In this document: in pieces, positions 1-37,079 of the stretch
Layout: the number at the start of each line of letters is the position of its first letter
Position numbering within the stretch: position 1 is the first letter of the stretch
NCBI GenBank assembly: GCA_043778625.1
Contig: JAYWFU010000104.1
Span: 3,216 to 67,215 of the forward strand
Direction of reading: 5' to 3'
DNA: 64,000 nt
From: Bacteroidia bacterium
GTDB taxonomy: Bacteria > Bacteroidota > Bacteroidia > UBA4408
The notes under the pieces: generated by a model
Database searches by the model: none
What the model was told of the DNA's origin: nothing
The model's input: the letters and a program-made list of their open reading frames with translations, nothing else
Position numbers and translations under genes: made by a program

Positions 1-142
1 TATCGTCCGCTTCTTTTTGGCGCTTATAATAGCCCTCGGTGGCGTTGCTTAGTTTTCCTTTTTTGTCAAAATAAATAATGTCTTGTGCAAATGCAGTAGT
101 AGCAATTGCCGCTACTAGTAGTGTAATTAATACCTGTTTCAT
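1..142 (-). CDS. hypothetical secreted protein, N-terminal fragment (gene continues past window start)
   Basis: Minus-strand ATG at 140-142. Translation MKQVLITLLVAAIATTAFAQDIIYFDKKGK... is signal-peptide-like. Absent from ORF track because it is truncated at the window edge. Confidence 0.4.
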   Translation of the reverse strand, partial: MKQVLITLLVAAIATTAFAQDIIYFDKKGKLSNATEGYYKRQKEADD

Positions 143-189
143 GTTGTTGTGTTTGGTTAGTTATTGTGTTGATTTAGTTGTTAATTTTT

Positions 190-756
190 TTAATTGAATG
201 GTAGTTTACCAATAATTGAATAGTTGCTTCCTGTAACAAATGAATATCCTCTTGCGTCACAAATAGTAGCATAATACACTCCATTTAATTTTGTTATGTA
301 TAATTTCCCTTTTGTTTGCAAGTCCATATTACCCAATGATGCATCTTTTAACATTATCGTAGTTTGCTCTTCCGTTAGCGAAAAAGTTGGAGCAACTATC
401 GACAGTTCTGTGTATAAACTAGGCGTTTTTCCACTTACTGTTATCGTGTATGAACCTCCTTCATAATTACCATCTATTGTGTACAAATTATTATTGCTAT
501 CGTAACGCCCTATCCCGTTTATTGTAGTAGTGTAGTTAATTGCACCAATACTTAGTTTGTTACCGGTTACGGTACATGTTGGATTTATTAGTTTGCAGGG
601 TTTACATACTCCACCACAATCCATGGCATCTTCGGTGCTATCTCTAAAACTATTGTGGCAATGGGTAATGTATAATGTTTCTTCGGTTTTGGTGCAGCCC
701 ACCATTACAATTATGGAGAGTAATGCAAATATGTTTTTTTTCATTAGGGTTCTCAA
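190..756 (-). CDS. Cys-motif lipoprotein (HCHN..D.TED..DCGG.CKPC), paralog 1 of a tandem pair
   Basis: 188 aa ORF with signal peptide and lipobox (VGC). Conserved 6-Cys/His motif shared with the adjacent ORF 759-1325. Beta-rich Asn/Thr/Tyr body. Confidence 0.6.
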   Translation of the reverse strand: MRTLMKKNIFALLSIIVMVGCTKTEETLYITHCHNSFRDSTEDAMDCGGVCKPCKLINPTCTVTGNKLSIGAINYTTTINGIGRYDSNNNLYTIDGNYEGGSYTITVSGKTPSLYTELSIVAPTFSLTEEQTTIMLKDASLGNMDLQTKGKLYITKLNGVYYATICDARGYSFVTGSNYSIIGKLPFN

Positions 757-758
757 TT

Positions 759-1325
759 TTATTTAGAAGCAAATTTTCCACTAATGTCATAGTTATAAGT
801 TGATTCGATTTTACCATTACAAATAATAGCGTAATAGGTATCGCCAGTTTTTACCATATATAATTGACCTGAGTTTAAATTCGGCGAAGTACTAGTATAA
901 CTACCATTAATGGATACACGAGCAAAATAAGGATAGCTATTATTTAACGCACCTTGCACAATTGAGTACGCACCATACAAATTAGGTACAGCGTCAGATA
1001 ATGTAATGGTATAATTACCCACTTCGGTAGTACCCGACATTACATATTCGTTATTATTATTTAACTTCCCAGTTCTGTTTGTATGATTAGTCCCTACATA
1101 GGTCTGTTGTGGGCTTACACGTGTAATATTAACTACAACATTACTAAAATTGCAAGTGGGTGTTACAGGAACACAAGGTTTGCAGGCTCCGCCGCAATCG
1201 GTACCATCTTCAGTATCGTCCTTAGTTTTGTTGTGGCAATGTTCAATATCAAGCGGCTTTTCGGTTGTTTTGTTACAACTTAAAACACCTACACAAAATA
1301 TAACTAAAAGTAGTTTCGTTCTCAT
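759..1325 (-). CDS. Cys-motif lipoprotein, paralog 2 of tandem pair
   Basis: 188 aa, signal peptide plus lipobox (LSC). Same HCHNKTKDDTEDGTDCGGACKPC motif and identical length to its neighbour. 2 nt spacing between the two genes. Confidence 0.6.
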   Translation of the reverse strand: MRTKLLLVIFCVGVLSCNKTTEKPLDIEHCHNKTKDDTEDGTDCGGACKPCVPVTPTCNFSNVVVNITRVSPQQTYVGTNHTNRTGKLNNNNEYVMSGTTEVGNYTITLSDAVPNLYGAYSIVQGALNNSYPYFARVSINGSYTSTSPNLNSGQLYMVKTGDTYYAIICNGKIESTYNYDISGKFASK

Positions 1326-1830
1326 TTATTTAATTTTCTGCAATGTTAATCTATTTTTTTCGCATTTTGAACGTTTAATAGGTATTTGTACCTGATTTTT
1401 ATTGTACATAAATCAATTTATTTTTTGGATAATTTGTACTGTAGCTTTCTTAATTTTTACGGTATAATTAATAATTATGTACTTCAATAATTTTTTATTT
1501 TTAGTAGTAGCTAGTTACTTAGTGTAAATTGCGCTTACGCAACGCGACAGTAGCTGTATTAATAATAAATTACTAGCAATATCTTTACCAATTATGAACC
1601 TGCTTTGCCAGTACAAGCGTCAGATAGCCGAGCAGTTTAGGCTAGTGCAAGCTTGTAGCTACAAGTATTCGAAACCTTAATTAAGCTGAATTCAATAGGT
1701 GTTTTGCCTTATCGGGGTTAACTCCACGCAGCACTACTATTTCTTTAATAATAAATTTGCCTCAAATTGTAGCAAACTTTCGCCATCAACTCCTATACAA
1801 CATTGAATAACTACTATAAAAAAATAGTAG

Positions 1831-1900
1831 TTATTCATTCACAGCACAACTGGCACTAGCCTCAACTACACAGTTACCTGACGCTTGCGCCAGCGGGGGG
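1831..1900. repeat. partial copy of MITE-like repeat (3' half with terminal inverted repeat GCTTGCGCCAGCGGGGGG) plus shared sub-repeat TTATTCATTCACAGCACAACTGGCACTAGC
   Basis: Direct sequence match to the 3' halves of repeats at 2668-2884, 35817-35986 and 36909-37079. The sub-repeat also occurs at 35178-35219. Confidence 0.6.
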
Positions 1901-1940
1901 TTACATTTTTTGAACCCTCACAAAATATAACCTACACAAA

Positions 1941-1980
1941 ACAAACAAAAAGCCCTGCAACGCAGGGCTTTATACTTTTT
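1941..1980 (-). terminator. rho-independent terminator (bidirectional hairpin AGCCCTGC-AACG-CAGGGCT)
   Basis: GC hairpin at 1951-1969 flanked by an A-run and a T-run. Downstream of minus-strand gene 2056-2595. Confidence 0.6.
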
Positions 1981-1989
1981 ATACCGTTT

Positions 1990-2022
1990 ATGAATACCAG
2001 CAACATGCTGGCACTAGCCTAA
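1990..2022. repeat. internal fragment of MITE-like repeat (TGAATACCAGCAACATGCTGGCACTAGCCT)
   Basis: Matches the central portion of the repeat copies at 2668-2884, 35817-35986 and 36909-37079. Confidence 0.5.
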
Positions 2023-2055
2023 AGAATTATTAGAACTATTTTAAGTTTTTTACTA

Positions 2056-2595
2056 CTAGTCCAAGTCTGTTCTTTTTGGATACCTAACTAATAAATTACT
2101 ATACTTTATGTCTTCTAAGAAAAATTTTGACGAGTATATTATATCTGTAAATTTATCTCCATCACTATCAGTTACAGAACCTTCTGTAAAATAAACTAAT
2201 TGTTTTTTTTTATAAGCAGACAACAATTCTTTATTATATTTTTCATTATAATACGGAACTATAATATACCTAGTTTTTGAATACACAACTAAATTATCAT
2301 AGACGGCTGAAAGAGTCTTAAAAAGTTCATCGTTAATGAGAGCATTGGTTACTTTAACATCAACAACTCTAACGGGAATAAGTATCCATTTGTGTTTTTC
2401 TAAATTAATTCCTGAATATAATGGGATATAATTTGCAGGCAAAGAGTCTAATACAAAAGGGTTTTCTCTTATATAACAATGAACAAAATGGTTACGTCCG
2501 TTTATACTCGAACACCACTTAAATTTATTTGAATGCACTGATTCCTGACAACTACTAAAAAATAAAGATATAACTACGATTGCTATTTTTCTCAT
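2056..2595 (-). CDS. hypothetical lipoprotein
   Basis: 179 aa. N-terminus MRKIAIVVISLFFSSC is a lipoprotein signal. Flanked by MITE-like repeat copies. Confidence 0.5.
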   Translation of the reverse strand: MRKIAIVVISLFFSSCQESVHSNKFKWCSSINGRNHFVHCYIRENPFVLDSLPANYIPLYSGINLEKHKWILIPVRVVDVKVTNALINDELFKTLSAVYDNLVVYSKTRYIIVPYYNEKYNKELLSAYKKKQLVYFTEGSVTDSDGDKFTDIIYSSKFFLEDIKYSNLLVRYPKRTDLD

Positions 2596-2667
2596 TTCCC
2601 TCCTGGCTTCCGTAATGTTGGTGTACCTACAAATCCATTTTTATTCTCTATTCCTTTATTAAAGCAT

Positions 2668-2884
2668 CCCCCGCTGGCGCGAGCTTGCAGCTCGTGTCCA
2701 CTACCACTGTACCAAACCTTATTTTCTTGTTTACTATCATTAATCATTACAATTAGTTTTTATTTTTTAATGAATACGAGCAACATGCTCGCACTAGCCT
2801 AAACTACACGGTTACCTAACGCTCGCACTAGCGGGGGCACTAGCTACAACTGCTCGGTTACCTAACGCTAGAGCTAGCGGGGGG
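2668..2884. repeat. MITE-like repeat copy A (5' TIR CCCCCGCTGGCGCGAGC, 3' TIR GCTAGAGCTAGCGGGGGG; internal duplication of the 3' end)
   Basis: About 217 bp. Near-identical to copies at 35817-35986 and 36909-37079. Internal inverted repeats CGAGCA..TGCTCG. Exactly fills the gap between gene ends 2595 and 2885. Confidence 0.75.
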
Positions 2885-3328
2885 CTAAGTCAAAAATTCT
2901 TTATCTAGAAACAACCAAATTAATGATACTATAAAAGAAAGAATACTGTGTTTTTTCAAAACTTTATCTCCATTAATATTTTTTATTAGGTTATTAAAAA
3001 TTCTGATATATATTAAAATAGGAATAAAAACAAAAAAACCAATAATTCTGAATGAAAAATAGAATGAAATAAATGAAACTAAATAAATTAAAATAAAAAA
3101 GAAGAGTTTGTATTTTTTTTCAAAAACAATCAATAGAGAATTACAACTATAAATAAAAAATATATGTATCAAATAATTAAAAATTAATTCTATTCCAACA
3201 TAACCCATAGTTATACCACTATCCCAGTTTAACCACTCTATTGTCTTAGGTAAAAAATAAAAAATGTTCAACAATACTATTAAAAAATCTAAAAAATGAA
3301 GATTAATGTAATTTTTTAAATTAATCAT
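2885..3328 (-). CDS. small polytopic membrane protein, putative Rhs-toxin immunity protein
   Basis: Highly hydrophobic 147 aa product if started at ATG 3326-3328 (MINLKNYINLHFLDFLIVLL...). ORF track extends it to 3412, overlapping the upstream Rhs gene. Sits immediately downstream of the Rhs toxin tip. Confidence 0.45.
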   Translation of the reverse strand: MINLKNYINLHFLDFLIVLLNIFYFLPKTIEWLNWDSGITMGYVGIELIFNYLIHIFFIYSCNSLLIVFEKKYKLFFFILIYLVSFISFYFSFRIIGFFVFIPILIYIRIFNNLIKNINGDKVLKKHSILSFIVSLIWLFLDKEFLT

Positions 3329-3332
3329 AGTC

Positions 3333-5456
3333 TTATTTGTTTTTTGGTTTGCCTTTATATATATGTAATTTTTGATCAACAGTTTTAATTGCATTAAATG
3401 CTGCTTTATCATCTACTGTTGCAGCATGTGCTGCTTTCCCTTCCTTTTTCCAATTAATATTTTTAGAATTAGCGTCTTCAACATCTTTTAATTCATACCC
3501 ATTTTGTTTAGCCATTGGCTGAACAAGTCCCATATTATCATTGGCGTAAGTAAACTGTATTCCTCTTTTTTTCAGTTCATCTGTCATTTCAATATCGTTA
3601 GGTTGATGAACGGAAAGAAAAACTAAATTTACGGAAACCTTAACCCCCTTACGTGCAGCAGCATCTATGATACCACCTGCAATACCAACGCCTTCTGCAT
3701 TCCCTTGACTATGCATTACCACCGTCATGATATTATTATTTGTACTGACTTTTATCTCTCCTGAATTAACCATTTCCATACCCGTTTGATAACCTTCTGA
3801 TATTCTAGATTTTGCGGTTGAGCCGTGGGCATGATCGCCTGAAACAAAATGACTCTTATCATCGTTAAAATATCTTTCAATTTCTTTTGTAAAACCTTTA
3901 TTTTTTGAATTCCAATAAGAGTCTCGCAATTTATCTTGAAAATCTTGTTCACGATCGCTTGAACTTCTGTACCCTCCCAACCTATAACCATTTACAAAAA
4001 TAATGTCTTTACCATCAGGATCTATTACATTAACTGGGTTATTTGCGGCATAAGAATACGGACTTATGTCAGGGTATTTACTTGCTTTAGCATCACGTTT
4101 TGGTGTTCTTCCTAATCTTAAATCTAACCATCTATCACCCATATCTATTGTATTACCAACTCCACTTACGTCGTTAATTTTTTCTTGCCCTCCAAAACCG
4201 ATTCTTTCTGCCTCGTTAGGGTTTAGCGGTTGTTGTAGTGTGTTTTTACCGCTTTTGTACAGTGTACGTTCGGTCAGGGGTGCTCCGAATCCGCTATAAT
4301 CTGTAGCACTTAATATATCGGCTTTGTAGCCTGTTATTGCATTATTTGTAATAATTGGTATTTTGCGGTCGGAGACGGTGGTAAGCACATTATTCAAATG
4401 ATTACTTAACTCAAAATGCTTGTTGCCTAGCGTGGTGTAATAATTAAGTGTTGGGGTGGGGCTTATTAATTTTACGGTAGTGTAATCAGCCCCTAGGCGT
4501 GCGCTACCGTATAGGTTGCGCTCGGTAAGGTTAAATGTACCTGCAAGCATATCGTAGTGGTACACGGCCATGGTATTGCCCTGCGCATCGCGGGTATAGT
4601 AGTCGCTACTTAGTAGCTGTGGCACTGCATTAGTTGTGGCACTGGTGTACACGTGCTTAGCTATGCGGTTTCCGCTGGCATCGTAGTCAAACTTCAGGTC
4701 GTTTTTAGTGCTATTCATTGCACGACTAATGTACTTAATTTTTCCGTACACTGTCCATTCAATTTTATCTATTTTTTCTTGGGTATCTTTGGTAAGGTTA
4801 CCAATAGGGTCGTAGCTGTAGTTGTTACTACCATTAACATTGCTTGGGTTAAAATTGCCTTGGTCCTCTATGTCGTCAAGTGGAGTACTAGCCAGCACAA
4901 AATCATTTACATGGTATAATCTATTTTGGGTTTTGCCATTAGTAGTGGTGGCGTTGTTGTAGTTATAAGTTAAATTATCAAATGTAGCTCCGCTACCATC
5001 GTTGCGTACCTGTGTAAGTATGTTACCATTGGCATCGTAGGTAAATGTATTAAAATATTTGGTTGAACCTGCAGTTGTTGGTTGCCAAGCATTAGCTGCT
5101 ATATCCAAATTATCATAGGCCTGCGCTTGCATTAGTCTATTTAGCTGGTCGTATTGGTAGGTAAATGCGTTGGGTAGTACGGCACCTGTGGTAGGGTTGG
5201 TAATGGTGGTAACCATAGCACTAATATTACCATTGAACAAGCTTTGTGCGGCGGCTATTGCACTACCTGTTTTGTTGGCATTAAAGGTGGTAGGCGCTAC
5301 GCTTTTATAATCGCCGTTGTAGTAGTTTAGGCTATAGCCCATGGCATCTTTGGGTATTAGTTTATTGGTTCCTACCGTTCTACCGTCTTTTCCTAGGTCG
5401 TTATTGGGGTTTAGGCTTTCGGAGTTTATGCTAATTACATTTATAAAATAGTCCAA
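3333..5456 (-). CDS. Rhs/YD-repeat protein fragment with C-terminal polymorphic toxin domain (alpha/beta-hydrolase/lipase-like); likely orphan Rhs tip module
   Basis: YD repeats (YDANGNILTQ, YDASGNRIAKHVY, DYYTRDAQGNTMAVYHYD). Rhs core-end motif AANNPVNVIDPDG, followed by a unique ~250 aa tip containing a VVMHSQGN nucleophile-elbow-like motif. Only 707 aa. The first codon is TTG at 5454-5456 (no ATG), with the first in-frame ATG ~38 codons in. Confidence 0.75.
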   Translation of the reverse strand: MDYFINVISINSESLNPNNDLGKDGRTVGTNKLIPKDAMGYSLNYYNGDYKSVAPTTFNANKTGSAIAAAQSLFNGNISAMVTTITNPTTGAVLPNAFTYQYDQLNRLMQAQAYDNLDIAANAWQPTTAGSTKYFNTFTYDANGNILTQVRNDGSGATFDNLTYNYNNATTTNGKTQNRLYHVNDFVLASTPLDDIEDQGNFNPSNVNGSNNYSYDPIGNLTKDTQEKIDKIEWTVYGKIKYISRAMNSTKNDLKFDYDASGNRIAKHVYTSATTNAVPQLLSSDYYTRDAQGNTMAVYHYDMLAGTFNLTERNLYGSARLGADYTTVKLISPTPTLNYYTTLGNKHFELSNHLNNVLTTVSDRKIPIITNNAITGYKADILSATDYSGFGAPLTERTLYKSGKNTLQQPLNPNEAERIGFGGQEKINDVSGVGNTIDMGDRWLDLRLGRTPKRDAKASKYPDISPYSYAANNPVNVIDPDGKDIIFVNGYRLGGYRSSSDREQDFQDKLRDSYWNSKNKGFTKEIERYFNDDKSHFVSGDHAHGSTAKSRISEGYQTGMEMVNSGEIKVSTNNNIMTVVMHSQGNAEGVGIAGGIIDAAARKGVKVSVNLVFLSVHQPNDIEMTDELKKRGIQFTYANDNMGLVQPMAKQNGYELKDVEDANSKNINWKKEGKAAHAATVDDKAAFNAIKTVDQKLHIYKGKPKNK

Positions 5457-5475
5457 TAGTTAAATAGCGTTAAGA

Positions 5476-5560
5476 GCACCCCTCCAACGGCGAAGCCCTC
5501 ACGAAACAAAATAATAAAATAAAACTTGAGTAACAAAGGAGGGGAATTCGTGGCGTGAAT
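5476..5560. repeat. GC-rich hairpin element GCACCCCTCC...AAAGGAGGGGAA with an embedded CCTCACGAAACAA / TTCGTG half-site pair
   Basis: The same GCACCCCTCC and AAAGGAGGGGAA arms recur at 53889-53915. The CACGAAAC/TTCGTG palindrome halves recur at 54254-54280 and 61504-61568. Lies 20-80 nt 5' of the Rhs start. Confidence 0.5.
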
Positions 5561-5692
5561 ATCACATTGGACTATGTAGTATTTGTATTTGCTATTATGG
5601 CTTTTTAAAAGTATTAACTAGTTCAAAATAGTATAAAAACTCGCTCCAATAGTGTTTCTAACACTTGTGTTTTGTTAATAGCGGTTACACTC

Positions 5693-5736
5693 AACAAAAA
5701 AGCGATACTAAATTAATAGTATCGCTTTTATTTTGT
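5693..5736 (-). terminator. rho-independent terminator after rplQ
   Basis: Hairpin AAGCGATACT-AAATTAAT-AGTATCGCTT followed on the minus strand by a U-run. 30 nt downstream of the rplQ stop. Confidence 0.65.
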
Positions 5737-5765
5737 GACGTATATAAATATGTAATTTAAGTAAA

Positions 5766-6551
5766 TTACTCTTTACCTCCGTCTAGTTTTTCTTGTAAAT
5801 CTTTCAATTCAGCCCATTTGCCTTCAGCAGCTAATAAGGCTTGCTGTGCCCAAGTTGCTGGATCGTGCATTTTGTAACGATCGCCTCCTGTTAATAATAC
5901 TTCCTTTGATTTTTCTACTGAAGTTTCAGCTAATTGTTTCCAAGTTGAAATACCTGCAGCTACGTACAGTTCTTCAATTTTAGGGCCAATTCCTTCTACT
6001 ATTTTCAAATCATCTAATTTAACTTTTTTACCAAAAGCTTCGCTTGCGGCTTTAGCATTAAAATCGCCTTCAGCAACTGGTGCTGTACTAGCCATATTTG
6101 CATCAGCAACTTTAGCATCAGCAGGTTTAGGGCTACGACGCGTTGTTTTAGCTTTAGCGGGTTCAGCAGCTAATTTTCCGTTTGAGTAAATTTCGTTGAA
6201 ATCAACTAGTTCAATCATGCACATATCAGCATTATCTCCCATACGATTACCCGTTTTAATTATACGAGTATAACCTCCTGGACGAGTTGCAATTTTAGGT
6301 GCAATATCTCTAAACATAGTTGAAACAATGTCTTTATTTTTAACATAAGCAAAAACAGTACGACGATTATGCGTAGTATCAGTTTTTGATTTTGTTAATA
6401 AAGGTTCAACGTATTTTCTTAATTCTTTAGCCTTAGCTACAGTAGTAAATATTCTTTTGTGTATAACCAGTGAAGAAGCTAAATTAGCCAACAACGCTTT
6501 GCGATGTGCCGATGTTCTTCCTAAATGATTTACTTTTGATCCGTGTCTCAT
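5766..6551 (-). CDS. rplQ: 50S ribosomal protein L17 with ~110 aa C-terminal extension (Ala/Lys-rich linker plus helix-hairpin-helix-like domain)
   Basis: N-terminal 150 aa are canonical L17 ([21 protein letters not shown]...). The extension contains [28 protein letters not shown] (HhH GIGxK signature). Last gene of the alpha operon. Confidence 0.85.
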
Positions 6552-6577
6552 AATATTTTTTTAATAACGAATGATTA

Positions 6578-7573
6578 TTATTCTTTTTCTAACTGATATT
6601 TACCAATGTTCATTCCAAAGTGTAAGCTTTTTGAATGTACAAGGTCTTCTAATTCAGTTAATGATTTCTTACCAAAATTTCTAAATTTGAGTAAGTCATT
6701 TTTGTTAAATGATACTAACTGACCCAAAGTATCAACATCAGCCGCTTTTAAGCAATTTAAAGCACGAACTGATAAATCCATGTCCGACAGTTTAGTTTTT
6801 AACAATTGACGCATGTGTAACGTATGCTCGTCAAATTCTTCTTTAGGAGCTTTATCTTCAGTATCCAGCGATATTTTTTCGTCCGAAAACAACATAAAGT
6901 GATGAATCAATATCTTAGCTGATTCTTTTAAGGCTTCCTTAGGATGCACTGAACCATCAGTAGTTATGTCCATAACTAATTTTTCATAATCCGTTTTTTG
7001 CTCAACACGAAAGTTTTCAATCGTATATTTTACATTTTTAATTGGAGTATAAATAGAGTCAATAGCAATAGCTCCAACAACAGTTCCTGCAGGTAATTTT
7101 TGCTCTTCAGCAGGTACATAACCTCTTCCCTTTTCAATAGTTAGTTCTAACTTCATTTTAACAGATGGATCCATTGTAGCTATCACTAAATCAGGGTTTA
7201 ACACCTGAAAAGCGGTTGCATATTTACCAATATCGCCTGCAGTTAAAAATTCTTTTCCTGAAACATTCACAATTACTCTTTCGTTTTCAGTGCCATCAAT
7301 TTGGCGCTTGAAGCGAACTTGTTTTAAATTTAAAATAATTTCAGTAACGTCTTCAACTACTCCTTTTATTGTCGAAAATTCGTGGTCTACACCTTCAATT
7401 TTAACTGAAGTTATAGCAAAACCTTCTAACGAATTTAATAATATTCTACGTAGTGCATTACCAACAGTAATGCCGTAGCCTGGCTCTAGTGGTCTAAATT
7501 CAAACTTACCATCGGTATCATTTGAATTTATCATAATCACCTTATCGGGCTTTTGAAATGGTACAATACTCAT
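6578..7573 (-). CDS. rpoA: DNA-directed RNA polymerase subunit alpha
   Basis: 331 aa; canonical rpoA sequence and operon position. Confidence 0.95.
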
Positions 7574-7602
7574 TATTTATAGTAGATTAAGTAAATTAAA
7601 AA

Positions 7603-8208
7603 TTAGCGTGAGTACAACTCTACAATAAGTTGTTCTTTAATGTTTTCAGGTATTGAAGCCCTTTCAGGAACTTGAACAAATTTACCTTTCATGCCACTAT
7701 TATCCCACTCTAACCACGACCATTTTGATAATTTTTGGTTGCGTACCGATTCAAAAATCTCTAACGATTTTGAACGCTCACGCACCTCAATAACATCACC
7801 CGTTTGCACTTGATACGATGAAATATTTACAACATTACCATTAACCAAAATATGCTTGTGGCTAACTACTTGCTTTGCAGCATCACGAGTAGGCGTAATT
7901 CCTAAACGATACACTACGTTGTCTAAGCGAGATTCAATTAACTGTAATAAAACCTCACCAGTAACACCATGTGCACGAGTAGCTTTATCAAAAGTTATTT
8001 TAAATTGTTTTTCTAATATACCATAAGTATATTTTGCTTTTTGTTTTTCTTGCAACTGAATTGCGTATTCAGATTGCTTCATACGTTTTTTAGCTAAACC
8101 GTGTATCCCTGGAGGATAGTTTTTCTTTTCAACGTATTTATCAGGACCAAAAATTGGCTCACGAAACTTACGTGCAATTTTTGACTTTGGACCAATATAT
8201 CTTGCCAT
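7603..8208 (-). CDS. rpsD: 30S ribosomal protein S4
   Basis: 201 aa; [15 protein letters not shown]... is canonical S4. Confidence 0.95.
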
Positions 8209-8239
8209 TTCTTTTAAAATTACTTTAATTTAGTTAATA

Positions 8240-8641
8240 CTATACTCTTCTTCTTTTTGGTGGACGACAGCCATTGTGTGGCATAGGCGTAATATCAACT
8301 ATTTCAGTAACTTCAATACCTGCACCTGCGATAGTTCTAATAGCCGATTCACGTCCAGCACCAGGGCCTTTTACGTAAACCTTAACTCTTCTTACACCAT
8401 TATCAAAAGCAACTTTTGAACAGTCAGCAGCAGAAATTTGTGCCGCATAAGGAGTATTCTTTTTGGAACCTCTGAATCCTGATTTACCAGCTGAGCTCCA
8501 CGATATTACATCGCCTGTCATATTGGTAAATGATACTATAATGTTATTAAAAGTTGATGATACATGCGCAAGCCCTGTACTCTCAACTTTTACTACACGT
8601 TTCTTAACTGCCTTAGCAGTACCTTTAGATTGTTTTGCCAT
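8240..8641 (-). CDS. rpsK: 30S ribosomal protein S11
   Basis: 133 aa; S11 signature. Confidence 0.95.
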
Positions 8642-8662
8642 CTAATTTTTAAAACTTAGTTA

Positions 8663-9040
8663 TTACTTAGTTACTTTTTTCTTGTTAGCAACTGTCTTTT
8701 TCTTACCTTTTCTAGTACGAGCATTATTTTTAGTTGTTTGCCCACGTACTGGTAAACCTACACGATGTCTAATTCCTCTGTAGCAACCAATATCCATTAA
8801 TCGCTTAATGTTTAGTTGAACTTCCGAACGCAAAACACCTTCAGTTTTGTAGTTATCTCCTATGATACTACGGATTTGACCTAATTCAGTGTCATTCCAC
8901 TCTGAAACCTTTTTATCAATACTGATACCAGCTTCAGTTAAAATTTTCTTAGATGTACTTAATCCTATTCCGAAGATGTAAGTAAGTCCAATTTCACCTC
9001 TTTTATTCTTAGGTAAATCAATTCCTGCAATCCTTGCCAT
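8663..9040 (-). CDS. rpsM: 30S ribosomal protein S13
   Basis: 125 aa; [10 protein letters not shown]... is canonical S13. Confidence 0.95.
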
Positions 9041-9056
9041 TGTTTTTTAACTTAAA

Positions 9057-9173
9057 TTATTTTTGTCTTTGTTTGAATTTAGGATTCTTTTTATTAATCA
9101 CATAAATTCTTCCTTTACGCTTTACGATTTTACAATCAGCGGTTCTTTTTTTGATTGATGTTCTAACTTTCAT
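9057..9173 (-). CDS. rpmJ: 50S ribosomal protein L36
   Basis: Hand-translated 38 aa [41 protein letters not shown] between rpsM and infA. Too small for the ORF track. Confidence 0.9.
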
Positions 9174-9177
9174 TTTT

Positions 9178-9396
9178 TTATTTGTAACGGTATGAAATTC
9201 TTCCTTTTGTTAAATCGTATGGCGACATTTCTACTTTAACTTTATCGCCTGGTAATATTTTAATATAATTCATTCTCATTTTTCCTGAGATATGAGCTGT
9301 AATAACATGTCCGTTTTCTAATTCAAGACGAAACATTGCGTTAGATAATGCCTCTATAATGGTTCCGTCTTGTTCAATCGAAGCTTGTTTTGCCAT
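9178..9396 (-). CDS. infA: translation initiation factor IF-1
   Basis: 72 aa; S1-like IF-1 sequence. Confidence 0.95.
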
Positions 9397-9399
9397 GTA

Positions 9400-10206
9400 T
9401 TAATTAATTATATAACTATTGTTTAAATTACTATTTTTTATTATTTCAGCCTCTATTATCTTAAAATCAGATAGTACATCTGCCTTCTCCTCTCCTATTG
9501 CAACAGTATGCTCAAAGTGTGCTGACATTTTTAAGTCTTTAGTTTTTACCGTCCAACCATCATTATAAAACTTAACGTGTTGTCCTCCCTCATTTATCAT
9601 TGGTTCTATTGCTATAACCATTCCTTTTTTTAATAATACTCCACTTCCTTTCTTTCCAAAATTTGGGACTTCAGGCTCTTCATGTAATGCCTTTCCAACA
9701 CCATGACCAACTAACTCCCTTACCACTCCAAAACCAAAACTTTCACAATAGGATTGAACTGCATTTGATATATCGCCTACTCTATTACCAACTACTGATT
9801 TTTCAATTGCCAAATATAACGAAGTTTTGGTAACTTCCAATAGTTTTTTACTATTTTCCGAAATATCACCCACTGCAAAGGTAAATGCCGAATCTCCGTA
9901 AAAATTATTACTCAAAATACCACAATCTATTGACAGAATATCGCCATTTTGAACTGGTGTTTCGCTAGGCAAACCATGAACTACCTGGTTATTTGGAGAA
10001 ATACACAATGAACCAGGAAATCCTCTATATCCTTTAAAAGCAGGTACAGCATTATTATCTAAAATAAACTGCTCTGCTATTTTATCTAGCGCTGAATAAA
10101 ATACTCCTTCTTTAATGTGTTTAGCAACTTCAGCTAGCGTTTTTGAAACTAATAACGAACTGTGTCGTAGTAATTCTATTTCCTCGTCAGTTTTTAAATA
10201 AACCAT
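9400..10206 (-). CDS. map: type I methionine aminopeptidase
   Basis: 268 aa; MetAP metal-ligand motifs; conserved position after secY. Confidence 0.9.
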   Translation of the reverse strand: MVYLKTDEEIELLRHSSLLVSKTLAEVAKHIKEGVFYSALDKIAEQFILDNNAVPAFKGYRGFPGSLCISPNNQVVHGLPSETPVQNGDILSIDCGILSNNFYGDSAFTFAVGDISENSKKLLEVTKTSLYLAIEKSVVGNRVGDISNAVQSYCESFGFGVVRELVGHGVGKALHEEPEVPNFGKKGSGVLLKKGMVIAIEPMINEGGQHVKFYNDGWTVKTKDLKMSAHFEHTVAIGEEKADVLSDFKIIEAEIIKNSNLNNSYIIN

Positions 10207-10215
10207 TCAACGAAC

Positions 10216-11559
10216 CTATATTGAAATAGCTTCTTTGTCAGCAGTTCTACCTTGCACTCTTCCCTCTTTCATTAAACCATCATAATGACGAACTAACAGA
10301 TAACTTTCGATTTGTTGTAAAGTATCTAACACAACCCCAACTAAAATCAATAGTGATGTACCTCCATAAAATGCTGCAAATTTACCACTTACACCTGCTA
10401 AAGAAGCAAATGCAGGTAATATAGCGATTAACGCTAAGAATAATGCCCCTGGCAAAGTAATAAACGACATTATCTGATCAATAAAAGTAGCTGTGTCGTC
10501 ACCTGGCTTAACACCTGGAATAAAACCATTATTACGTTTCATATCATCAGCCATGTTTTTAGGATTAATCATTATAGCCGTATAAAAATAAGTGAACGCA
10601 ATAATAAGAGTTGCAAATATTAAATTATGCCAAAAACCTGTATAATCCATCAGTGCTGTCGCAATTGAATTTAATGTTTTAGAATCCGTAACGCCTGAAA
10701 TTGCAGCAGGTAAGAACATAATTGCTTGTGCAAATATTATTGGCATAACTCCTGAAGCATTTACCTTTAATGGTATATACTGACGAGCTCCATTAACATC
10801 ATTTGTTCCAACAACACGTTTAGCAAATTGTACTTGTATCTTACGTACACCTTGTACTAACATTATATTAAGTACAACTACCAAAAATAACGCTACCATC
10901 TCTACTAAAAATAATACTAAACCACCTCCTGTATTTGCACTAATCTTAGTATCAAATTCTGACAAAATAGCTTCAGGAAAACGTGCAATAATACCTACAG
11001 CAATGATTAAAGAAACACCATTACCAATACCTCTATCAGTAATCCGCTCTCCTAACCAAAGTACAAACATAGTACCAGCAACAAGTATGATTATAGTACT
11101 AACCCACCACAATTGAGAATTGGGTTCTAACTTAGCTGCTTCAGGTATTTGGGAAAGAATATAGCCAGGTGCTTGAAATAAAGTTACAACAATCGTTAAA
11201 AAACGAGTGTATTGATTCAATTTTTTTCGCCCGCTTTCACCGTCTTTTTGCAAACGAGCTAATGTGGGTACTGCAATTGTTAAAATTTGAATTACAATTG
11301 AAGCCGAAATATAAGGCATAATACCTAATGCAAAAATTGAGGCACGAGAAAATGCACCTCCAGCAAAAACGTTAATTAAAGCTGTAATTCCTGTTGCATC
11401 TGCTTGTTTTTCACTCAAAATTTGAGCATCAATACCTGGTAAAACAACAAATGATCCTATTCTATAAGCAATAAGCAAAAGAATTGTATATACAATCTTT
11501 TGCTTAAGCTCCTCAATAGACCAAATATTTTTTAATGTTTGAATAAATTTTTTCATCAA
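10216..11559 (-). CDS. secY: preprotein translocase subunit SecY
   Basis: 447 aa; 10 TM; canonical SecY. Confidence 0.95.
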   Translation of the reverse strand: MMKKFIQTLKNIWSIEELKQKIVYTILLLIAYRIGSFVVLPGIDAQILSEKQADATGITALINVFAGGAFSRASIFALGIMPYISASIVIQILTIAVPTLARLQKDGESGRKKLNQYTRFLTIVVTLFQAPGYILSQIPEAAKLEPNSQLWWVSTIIILVAGTMFVLWLGERITDRGIGNGVSLIIAVGIIARFPEAILSEFDTKISANTGGGLVLFLVEMVALFLVVVLNIMLVQGVRKIQVQFAKRVVGTNDVNGARQYIPLKVNASGVMPIIFAQAIMFLPAAISGVTDSKTLNSIATALMDYTGFWHNLIFATLIIAFTYFYTAIMINPKNMADDMKRNNGFIPGVKPGDDTATFIDQIMSFITLPGALFLALIAILPAFASLAGVSGKFAAFYGGTSLLILVGVVLDTLQQIESYLLVRHYDGLMKEGRVQGRTADKEAISI

Positions 11560-11562
11560 AAA

Positions 11563-12009
11563 TTATAGTGTAGTAAATGAACCTCCAACTTTCGTTATTG
11601 CTTCTTGCGCTACTGTTGAAAATTTGTTTAATGTTACGTTTACTTTAGCAGTTAGCTCTCCACGCCCCAAAACTTTAACTAAATCATTCTTAGAAGCTAA
11701 ACCAGCATTTAATAATACCTCTTTAGTAATTTCTGTAATATTTTTAGTTTCTGCTAAGTGTTGTAAAGTATCTAAATTAACAACCTTATACTCAATACGG
11801 TTGATGTTTTTGAAGCCAAACTTAGGTAAGCGACGTTGTAATGGAGTTTGTCCACCCTCAAAACTTCTTTTACTTGAATATCCTGAACGTGATTGAGCAC
11901 CTTTGTGACCTCTAGTAGCCGTTCCACCTCCGCCAGAACCTTGTCCGCGCCCCCTTCTATAGTTGTTTTTTGTAGCTCCTAAAGCGGGTTTTAATGTATT
12001 TAAATTCAT
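11563..12009 (-). CDS. rplO: 50S ribosomal protein L15
   Basis: 148 aa; Gly/Arg-rich N-terminus typical of L15. Confidence 0.95.
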   Translation of the reverse strand: MNLNTLKPALGATKNNYRRGRGQGSGGGGTATRGHKGAQSRSGYSSKRSFEGGQTPLQRRLPKFGFKNINRIEYKVVNLDTLQHLAETKNITEITKEVLLNAGLASKNDLVKVLGRGELTAKVNVTLNKFSTVAQEAITKVGGSFTTL

Positions 12010-35816: not shown

Positions 35817-35986
35817 CCCCTGCTGGCGCGAGCATGTTGCTCGTGTCCGCTACCATTGTACCAAACTTTATTTTCTTATTTACTATCATTAATTATTACA
35901 ATTAGTTTTTATTTTTTAATGAATACCAGCAACATGCTCGCACTAGCTTATACTACACGCTTACCTAACGCTAGAGCTAGCGGGGG
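35817..35986. repeat. MITE-like repeat copy B
   Basis: 170 bp, CCCCTGCTGGCGCGAGC...GCTAGAGCTAGCGGGGG. About 90 percent identical to copies A and C. Confidence 0.75.
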
Positions 35987-36908: not shown

Positions 36909-37079
36909 CCCCCCGCTGGCGCGAGCATTTTGCTCGTGTCCGCTACCATTGTACCTAACCTTAATTTTCTTGTTTACTATCATTAATCATTACAATTAGT
37001 TTTTATTTTTTAATGAATACGAGCAACATGCTGGCACTAGCCTCAACTGCACGCCTACCTAACGCTAGAGCTAGCGGGG
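36909..37079. repeat. MITE-like repeat copy C
   Basis: 171 bp. Both TIRs intact. Abuts the gene start at 36888/36903 and the gene stop at 37083. Confidence 0.75.

Follow-up and report, generated by a model that had tools for sequence, protein, structure and literature searches.

A probable stranded orphan Rhs toxin-immunity cassette with a predicted alpha/beta-hydrolase tip behind rplQ in a Bacteroidia genome

The DNA analysed here, called the window, is a 64,000-nucleotide (64-kb) stretch of contig JAYWFU010000104.1 from a Bacteroidia bacterium. Behind the ribosomal protein gene rplQ it holds an open reading frame (ORF) of 707 amino acids (aa), consisting of a fragment of an Rhs shell and a C-terminal toxin tip, and directly downstream a gene for a 147-aa membrane protein, the presumed immunity protein (Table 1). 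The pair is probably an orphan toxin-immunity cassette. The start codon of the immunity ORF is 4 nucleotides (nt) beyond the stop of the Rhs ORF. The GC content of the cassette is a mosaic, 41% in the core, 34% in the tip and 18.5% in the immunity gene, compared with 35.6% for the window. Loci and assemblies used for comparison are given by L numbers and their proteins by P numbers.

Table 1. Features of the rplQ-Rhs region, in window coordinates
Feature	Coordinates	Strand	Basis or remark
rplQ (L17 with C-terminal extension; last gene of conserved operon)	5766..6551	-	Ribosomal_L17 match, E=7e-36
Non-coding gap, rplQ to Rhs ORF	5457..5765	-	309 nt; holds rplQ terminator hairpin 5698-5729
Rhs C-terminal shell fragment plus toxin tip, 707 aa	3333..5456	-	Stop codon 3333-3335; nominal TTG start
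Rhs/YD-repeat shell fragment, aa 1-482	4011..5456	-	RHS_repeat and YD_repeat matches; AlphaFold model; Foldseek
Rhs core end, aa 443-482 (WLDLRLGRTPKRDAKASKYPDISPYSYAANNPVNVIDPDG)	4011..4130	-	DPDG at 4011-4022
Toxin tip, aa 483-707 (225 aa), predicted minimal alpha/beta hydrolase	3336..4010	-	AF2 model, conservation, weak structural matches
147-aa polytopic inner-membrane protein, presumed cognate immunity	2885..3328	-	ATG at 3328; conserved synteny with tip
Tandem copies of GC-rich repeat (~50-90 nt), abutting end of immunity gene	2767..2883		Dispersed in genome, not cassette-specific

A truncated Rhs ORF

The 707-aa ORF matched two repeat models above their cut-offs, PF05593 RHS_repeat (E=1.4e-5, 25.8 bits; cut-off 22) and TIGR01643 YD_repeat (24.5 bits; cut-off 15.8), and it contains six YD dipeptides. 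The core model TIGR03696 Rhs_assc_core matched aa 415-482 with E=6e-7 and 29.9 bits, under its cut-off of 32.5. The shell of 482 aa closes with AANNPVNVIDPDG, the DPDG being at aa 479-482, and is followed by the tip. Asp445 and Asp455 fall where the aspartyl autoprotease motif has its two acidic residues and are candidates for that role. The core-end segment (aa 443-482) gave the sole sequence-level PDB match of the ORF, to TccC3. In an AlphaFold model of the whole ORF (predicted local distance difference test score, pLDDT, 82.7) the shell is a long, open beta-sheet spiral. A Foldseek search with this shell retrieved TcB-TcC cocoons, YenC2, TccC2/3, teneurins and the Rhs cores of type VI secretion systems (T6SS), with E-values of 1e-13 to 1e-9 and a probability of 1.0. 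By its repeats the ORF is assigned to the Rhs/YD-repeat polymorphic toxins, and the predicted fold is consistent with this.

The original prediction had recognized the YD repeats and the core end, and had judged the ORF too short for a full Rhs protein and hence a C-terminal fragment. Both points hold. In genomes, the full-length relatives each consist of a single ORF, 2,917-4,803 aa long. The window ORF aligns to their C-terminal region, the similarity beginning at its first codon. A complete shell with an N-terminal plug and a delivery or export domain is not present; the ORF holds only 482 aa of shell. When an in-frame extension was sought upstream, in 5457-5765, stops were found in all three frames. 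The ORF does begin nominally at TTG as had been claimed, but the stop said to precede it immediately is two codons ahead (in-frame codons TAA-CTA-TTG), and the claim that there is no ATG is imprecise; the first in-frame ATG is codon 39 (5340-5342), from which another gene caller called a 669-aa product (P0029, assembly L020). The distance to rplQ, given as 310 bp, is one nucleotide shorter by measurement, and the adjacency itself stands.

The same junction is found in assembly L001 (Logan SRR14689469), which is 100% identical to the window, and in assembly L020 (ENA ERZ28573911), with 99.98% identity over 5,833 nt. Since the rplQ-Rhs junction is common to three independent assemblies, the truncation is not an artefact of a single assembly.

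A protein search with the 482-aa core gave 435 matches. Among the best 120 of these, all are 433-844 aa long, and their tips are of many kinds, among them toxin, peptidase and lipase domains known to Pfam. Some of the core matches end at contig ends and many are on long contigs. The closest core relative in the protein database, P0173, has 51% identity. Such modules occur in two settings. In arrays, modules of 600-690 aa sit behind giant (3,000-4,800 aa) Bacteroidota Rhs genes; at L042 modules of 689, 601 and 633 aa follow the main gene, at L015 an Rhs of >4,190 aa is followed by small genes and then by the tip homologue P0001 with an immunity homologue, and L006 and L019 also have arrays of core-end modules. 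Others stand alone among housekeeping genes: P0173 (L040) adjoins the tuf-rpoB region, P0185 (L041) has a small downstream gene and an integrase nearby, and P0021 (L019) lies behind ccm genes. The called starts of related fragments range from -132 to +276 aa relative to the window ORF start. A 'hot spot' for fragment starts was considered and rejected, the start clusters coinciding with conserved Met residues (MVTTI, GMDYAY, MKGVN) and being judged gene-calling artefacts.

Six relatives of 790-839 aa (P0179, P0192, P0196, P0215, P0230, P0242) begin with a clear Sec signal peptide, which runs straight into the repeat 'QRFKRIDYxYDLISGKVN'. This junction falls at the place of a short linker that follows '...YDIHGNVxTLLQD' in the continuous giant Rhs proteins. 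At L042 (9900-10100) the preceding 924-aa ORF stops at that linker, 15 nt ahead of the signal-peptide start; signal-peptide modules are also found at L044:7319-12445 and L043:10001-12514. These ~800-aa modules could be a natural TcB/TcC-like split or an autonomous class of secreted mini-Rhs proteins. The window ORF starts 117 aa downstream of their start, with the signal peptide and ~90 mature residues absent. Because it starts inside this class, it is without an export signal or a delivery domain. In the alignment its TTG falls on the Leu/Met of G[ML]DYAYTLQGW, a conserved shell motif, and its first ~15 residues are a degraded form of the conserved 'G[ML]DYAYTLQGWIKGVNS' motif. From these alignments the ORF is best described as a copy of an ~800-840-aa module minus its N-terminal 117 aa.

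The ORF might instead be a working gene. Its half-shell, translated from the TTG or from the ATG at codon 39, would then assemble in trans with a separate N-terminal Rhs partner, as TcC does with TcB, making it a swappable 'C subunit'. The ORF is intact, the best structural matches include the C components YenC2 (4igl_B, 666 aa) and TccC2/3, and naturally split relatives exist in the ~800-aa signal-peptide modules that start exactly at the linker of the continuous proteins (L042, L044). Such a role is nonetheless very improbable. The start lies past the natural split start, the DYAYTLQGWIKGVNS motif at the N-terminus is degraded, and the starts of related fragments scatter as expected for truncations. 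Moreover, eight giant relatives are single continuous ORFs that carry their own C-terminal half, and the window has no partner gene for a half-shell; no other Rhs-like sequence was found in its 64 kb. A truncated module, stranded from its delivery part, therefore remains the preferred description.

The toxin tip and its membrane partner

The tip gave no match in a Pfam/NCBIfam scan of aa 483-707. Its AlphaFold 2 (AF2) model has a pLDDT of 84 overall, with the tip blocks mostly >90, and consists of alternating beta and alpha elements. The motif HSQGN lies at aa 582-586. In the model Ser583 (M-H-S583-Q-G-N; codon 3708-3710) sits between strand 134-141 and helix 143-160 (model numbering), the position of a nucleophile elbow. 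Asp640 (codon 3537-3539) comes after a later strand, 190-193 (model numbering), and His677 (codon 3426-3428) is near the C-terminus. Together the three residues form a candidate catalytic triad.

Homologues of the tip fall into a close and a broad group. The close homologues form 28 clusters with 27-70% identity, all of them proteins of 144-378 aa, most of which begin ~75 aa ahead of DPDG. Three are lipoproteins with a different N-terminal region (P0012, P0013, P0016). An exhaustive profile search with the tip found 1,132 cluster representatives at E<=1e-3, 17 of them at E<=1e-30. No protein in the close group of this search exceeds 871 aa, and distant members lie at the C-termini of proteins of 1,100-3,400 aa. 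A Pfam scan of three such long proteins found DUF6443 in all three (one below threshold) and RHS repeats in one. The sequence HSQGNA, Asp640 and His677 are invariant in the close family. In a broad alignment (17 sequences sampled from the 1,132 representatives) H-S-x-G-x-A and the Asp are invariant, and the His is present in most distant members. The elbow consensus in 126 relatives is [GSTAM]HSxG[GAN]. This conservation of the triad argues for a catalytic role of the tip, and catalysis would be by Ser583-Asp640-His677.

Comparison with solved structures gave matches that were weak, but consistently to hydrolases. Foldseek with the tip returned cutinases/PETases, the thioesterases TesA and YbtT, and lipases (E ~1e-3, template-modelling scores 0.25-0.37), and a profile search returned Bacillus LipA, class-3 lipases, esterases and thioesterases (E 0.07-1). 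Distant family members touch the Abhydrolase_1, Lipase_3 and Thioesterase models. The model and the conserved motifs support the view that the tip is an alpha/beta-fold serine hydrolase of an uncurated family. The nucleophile elbow claimed in the original prediction is thus borne out by the modelled strand-helix position of Ser583 and by the conserved motif. Its further claim of a 'Tle-like lipase' did not fare as well. None of the Tle, DUF2235 and Lipase_3 models, nor any other Pfam/NCBIfam family, matched the window protein, and the only trace was Tle3 PF24322 at E=0.013 in 3 of 22 relatives. That prediction was largely right, and over-specific on this point.

Lipase activity is a plausible function for the tip. 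Alternatively, the tip may be a serine hydrolase with a non-lipid substrate, such as a thioesterase, a peptidoglycan or lipoprotein esterase or a peptidase, or it may be non-catalytic. This has perhaps one chance in a few. The best matches are distributed over cutinases/PETases, type II thioesterases and small lipases with similarly weak scores, and an alpha/beta-hydrolase tip of a toxin is not necessarily a lipase, as noted by Zhang et al. (2012, PMC3482391). Against a non-catalytic tip, the Ser and Asp are at canonical topological positions and invariant broadly, as is the His in the close family; against a non-lipid substrate, the membrane-embedded or lipoprotein partners of the family favour a substrate near the membrane.

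Some occurrences of the domain lie outside Rhs proteins. The hydrolase domain is the C-terminal half of the stand-alone lipoproteins P0012, P0013 and P0016 (L017:8001-9137), P0012 having no adjacent immunity-like gene, which suggests a use of the domain as a secreted enzyme. A weak PEGA match was seen in one of 22 aligned family members. One tip homologue with 48% identity, P0019 (L028, JACCDQ011742476.1), is annotated in an assembly of the rotifer Rotaria socialis and could be bacterial contamination or a horizontal transfer into the rotifer.

The small polytopic membrane protein noted 4 nt downstream by the original prediction was confirmed, and its conservation beside the tip fits an immunity role. 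It has ~4-5 hydrophobic spans. It matched no Pfam/NCBIfam family, and in a set of 5.8 billion proteins only 5 clusters resemble it. In L015/L022 and in L024/L025 the gene immediately after the closest tip homologues encodes a homologue of it (47-50% identity). The pairing thus recurs at two further, distinct loci, as would be expected of a cognate immunity gene, and the 147-aa protein is accordingly the putative immunity protein of the tip. The family has invariant E47, N51 and H55, which at a spacing of i/i+4/i+8 would be on one face of a predicted transmembrane helix. It also has an invariant S61-C62-x-S64 motif, and a conserved polar face inside the membrane is predicted.

The partners of more distant tip relatives differ. 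They are unrelated proteins with 4-5 transmembrane segments in L019 and L030, lipoproteins in L016, L029 and L032-L039, and a small protein with an N-terminal hydrophobic anchor in L026; none is clearly a soluble cytoplasmic protein. A common origin of the membrane partners was considered and rejected, hhalign of the 147-aa family against the L019 and L030 partners giving no homology. Because the partners are membrane proteins or lipoproteins and the tip also occurs in stand-alone lipoproteins, the toxin appears to act outside the cytoplasm, in the periplasm or at the membrane.

A wider proposal joins these strands. The tip would found an uncharacterised family of alpha/beta-hydrolase toxins of small size (~1,100 cluster representatives, most of them carried by Bacteroidota Rhs proteins), its cognate immunity would be an integral membrane protein with the conserved polar helix face E47/N51/H55, and the ~800-aa signal-peptide relatives would be autonomous or TcC-like split Rhs subunits, not dead orphans. 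As a whole this is tentative, and the odds are against it by somewhat over two to one. If true, it would imply a membrane-embedded substrate and a protection unlike that of Tle-Tli, by substrate shielding or by capture of the toxin within the bilayer.

The variable site behind rplQ and the likely nature of the cassette

The original prediction had called for a comparison of the region downstream of rplQ in related genomes. The L021 contig has an identical RpoA and 92% DNA identity to the window up to 5691, just past the rplQ terminator, whose hairpin is conserved; all similarity is then lost. Beyond that point L021 has unrelated genes, for a NUMOD4 protein and, on the opposite strand, for a GDSL lipase. 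This loss of similarity shows that the site behind rplQ varies among relatives. The upstream spacer matched L040 weakly (E=6e-4, AT-rich), and no meaning was attached to this.

In the region upstream of the Rhs ORF (5457-5690) no sigma-70-like promoter or Bacteroidota TAnnTTTG motif was found by a crude scan that captures Bacteroidota promoters poorly. No tRNA, a possible marker of integration, was found in 1-12000, nor was there a recombinase-sized ORF in the flank 1-2885. Related cassettes elsewhere do adjoin tyrosine recombinases, as pairs in L015 (12293-14147) and L029 (1048-2938), the latter among mobile-element-like genes, and as a single gene in L041.

The GC-rich repeats that abut the immunity gene were considered as cassette boundaries or attachment sites. 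They were rejected because further copies are present at 35.9 kb and 37.0 kb, and there are none upstream of the ORF. The copies are at 1607-1660, 1850-1899, 1987-2023, 2767-2883, 35899-35986 and 36993-37079. The genome has 36% GC. Within the repeat is a small hairpin whose arms show compensatory changes from one copy to another (CGAGCA...TGCTCG versus CCAGCA...TGCTGG). An Rfam scan gave sub-threshold chance matches only and none for the repeat, which looks like a dispersed REP-like (repetitive extragenic palindromic) or MITE-like (miniature inverted-repeat transposable element) sequence.

A core fragment, a tip and an adjacent small immunity gene, lacking a delivery part, make up an orphan module, and all are found here. 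The best explanation, with a probability of about 0.72, is that a toxin-immunity cassette of a Bacteroidota Rhs polymorphic-toxin system has been stranded here as an orphan. Of the shell the ORF retains the last 482 residues, core-end autoprotease/DPDG segment included, and the 225-residue toxin domain is intact. The delivery part is missing, namely the N-terminal domains and most of the shell when measured against the giants, or the first 117 residues when measured against the ~800-aa modules. On its own the fragment most likely cannot be delivered, and it is probably poorly expressed since it lies past the rplQ terminator without a recognisable promoter. In full-length relatives the tip would come free of the shell after the DPxG motif and would attack an ester or thioester substrate in the envelope of the target cell, most likely a membrane lipid. 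The 147-aa inner-membrane protein may neutralise the tip by binding it at the membrane or by shielding the substrate. The pair may be kept as a reservoir for recombination onto a full-length rhs gene, or for immunity against neighbours that deliver the toxin.

The pair could also be kept for use inside the cell, either as an immunity-only acquired defence or as a toxin-antitoxin-like (TA-like) module expressed from internal starts. There is a precedent in Salmonella, in which an orphan Rhs-CT/RhsI pair has internal promoters and shows TA-like behaviour (Starsta et al. 2020, PMC7043789). In the window, the immunity gene is intact and closely linked to the toxin; tyrosine recombinases or mobile-element genes also sit beside the related cassettes in L015, L029 and L041. 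One TAnnTTTG motif occurs at 4002..3995, just past the DPDG codons, but one such motif is within the chance expectation of ~0.95 per kb per strand. In addition, no recombinase is in the visible flank (1-2885), and a toxin predicted to act in the envelope could not reach its target from the cytoplasm. Intracellular use is therefore unlikely, and it overlaps the best explanation rather than contradicting it.

Several observations weigh against the stranded cassette. First, the ORF is intact over 707 codons, keeps all the invariant residues of the tip family and shows no visible decay. Second, a full-length rhs gene with a matching core was not found in the 64-kb window, and a scan of a genome collection that lacks the source genome gave no close match, which leaves a reservoir, and the displaceable character proposed in the original prediction, without a partner. 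Third, the promoter scans were crude, and promoters of Bacteroidota are poorly captured by them. Fourth, the hydrolase assignment is drawn from a predicted structure and motifs, with weak Foldseek matches and no curated family matched.

Taken as a feature of the genome, the cassette is unremarkable, being another case of the familiar orphan Rhs toxin-immunity arrangement, misplaced after a ribosomal operon at a site that varies. It is of more value for what it leads to, a toxin domain of the alpha/beta-hydrolase type that is widespread yet covered by no curated model, and for which S583/D640/H677 is the proposed triad. The tip family and its membrane immunity are uncharacterised, and the rare, conserved polytopic-membrane partner could reveal the target of the toxin. 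The ~800-aa Bacteroidota Rhs modules with their own signal peptides also raise the question whether many 'orphans' in the phylum are real, separately exported proteins.

The neighbouring sequence adds a few features. The rplQ product L17 has a C-terminal extension of ~140 aa with weak HHH_5/DUF4332-like matches. On the other side of the cassette, a 179-aa lipoprotein-like ORF (2056-2595, minus strand, 27.8% GC) is overlapped by a 51-aa ORF (2592-2747, minus strand) that runs through GC-rich, hairpin-forming sequence and is probably not a gene. Neither ORF had a Pfam/NCBIfam match or homologues in the comparison loci, and neither could be linked to the cassette; the 179-aa ORF may be an orphan immunity gene. 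The 730 nt of 1326-2055 contain no ORF >81 aa; they hold several repeat copies, in either orientation, and also two strong hairpin terminators, at 1804-1837 and 1949-1971. Further on are tandem paralogous lipoproteins of 188 aa (190-756 and 759-1325, minus strand) with a Cys-rich N-terminal motif (CHN...TED..DCGG.CKPC), a pair without homologues in the comparison loci; this pair could not be linked to the cassette either.

Comparison with known systems

Acquired or orphan immunity islands of gut Bacteroidales were reportedly described by Ross et al. in 2019. These are said to consist of toxin fragments and immunity genes away from secretion loci, sometimes beside tyrosine recombinases, and the window cassette resembles them in the first respect. 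It differs in that its visible flank has no recombinase and no multi-gene immunity array, and the adjoining repeats are a genome-wide element.

Alpha/beta-hydrolase tips are a known class in polymorphic toxins, Tox-ABhydrolase-1 to -3 (Zhang et al. 2012, PMC3482391). With these and with the T6SS lipase effectors Tle1-Tle4 and their Tli immunity proteins the cassette shares an alpha/beta-hydrolase domain (predicted here) serving as an interbacterial toxin, a GxSxG-type elbow and a partner located in the envelope. Unlike Tle, the window tip has Met in place of the first Gly of the elbow (MHSQGN), and the domain is small, ~225 aa. The partners also differ: Tli proteins are periplasmic or lipoproteins, and the immunity partners listed for Tox-ABhydrolase-2/3, Imm66 and Imm69, are soluble (compared by description only), whereas the window partner is a polytopic membrane protein.

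The TcC components TccC3 and YenC2 are similar in size and have the same order of parts, a variable toxin placed after the C-terminal portion of an Rhs cocoon that includes the autoprotease segment. However, TcC is a full gene with a complete TcB interface, whereas the window ORF, by comparison with its own complete relatives, is truncated, and it has no partner close by.

The closest parallel in organization is with the orphan rhs-CT/rhsI modules of Enterobacteriaceae, described in Salmonella Typhimurium and E. coli (Koskiniemi et al. 2014, PMC3967940; Starsta et al. 2020, PMC7043789). Those of Salmonella are reported to serve as a recombination reservoir (Koskiniemi et al. 2014, PMC3967940). 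The enterobacterial orphans lie directly downstream of a full-length rhs gene that shares their core, whereas the window cassette is alone behind rplQ with no rhs in 64 kb, and it keeps as much as 482 aa of core, unlike them. Its relatives are giant Bacteroidota Rhs proteins with DUF6443-type N-termini, not the Rhs proteins linked to PAAR/VgrG of the T6SS. Like the enterobacterial orphans, the window ORF is without a delivery part and a proper start codon, and the cassette has the same plan as theirs: a C-terminal piece of the core through DPxG, a variable tip and a tightly linked, very AT-rich immunity gene.

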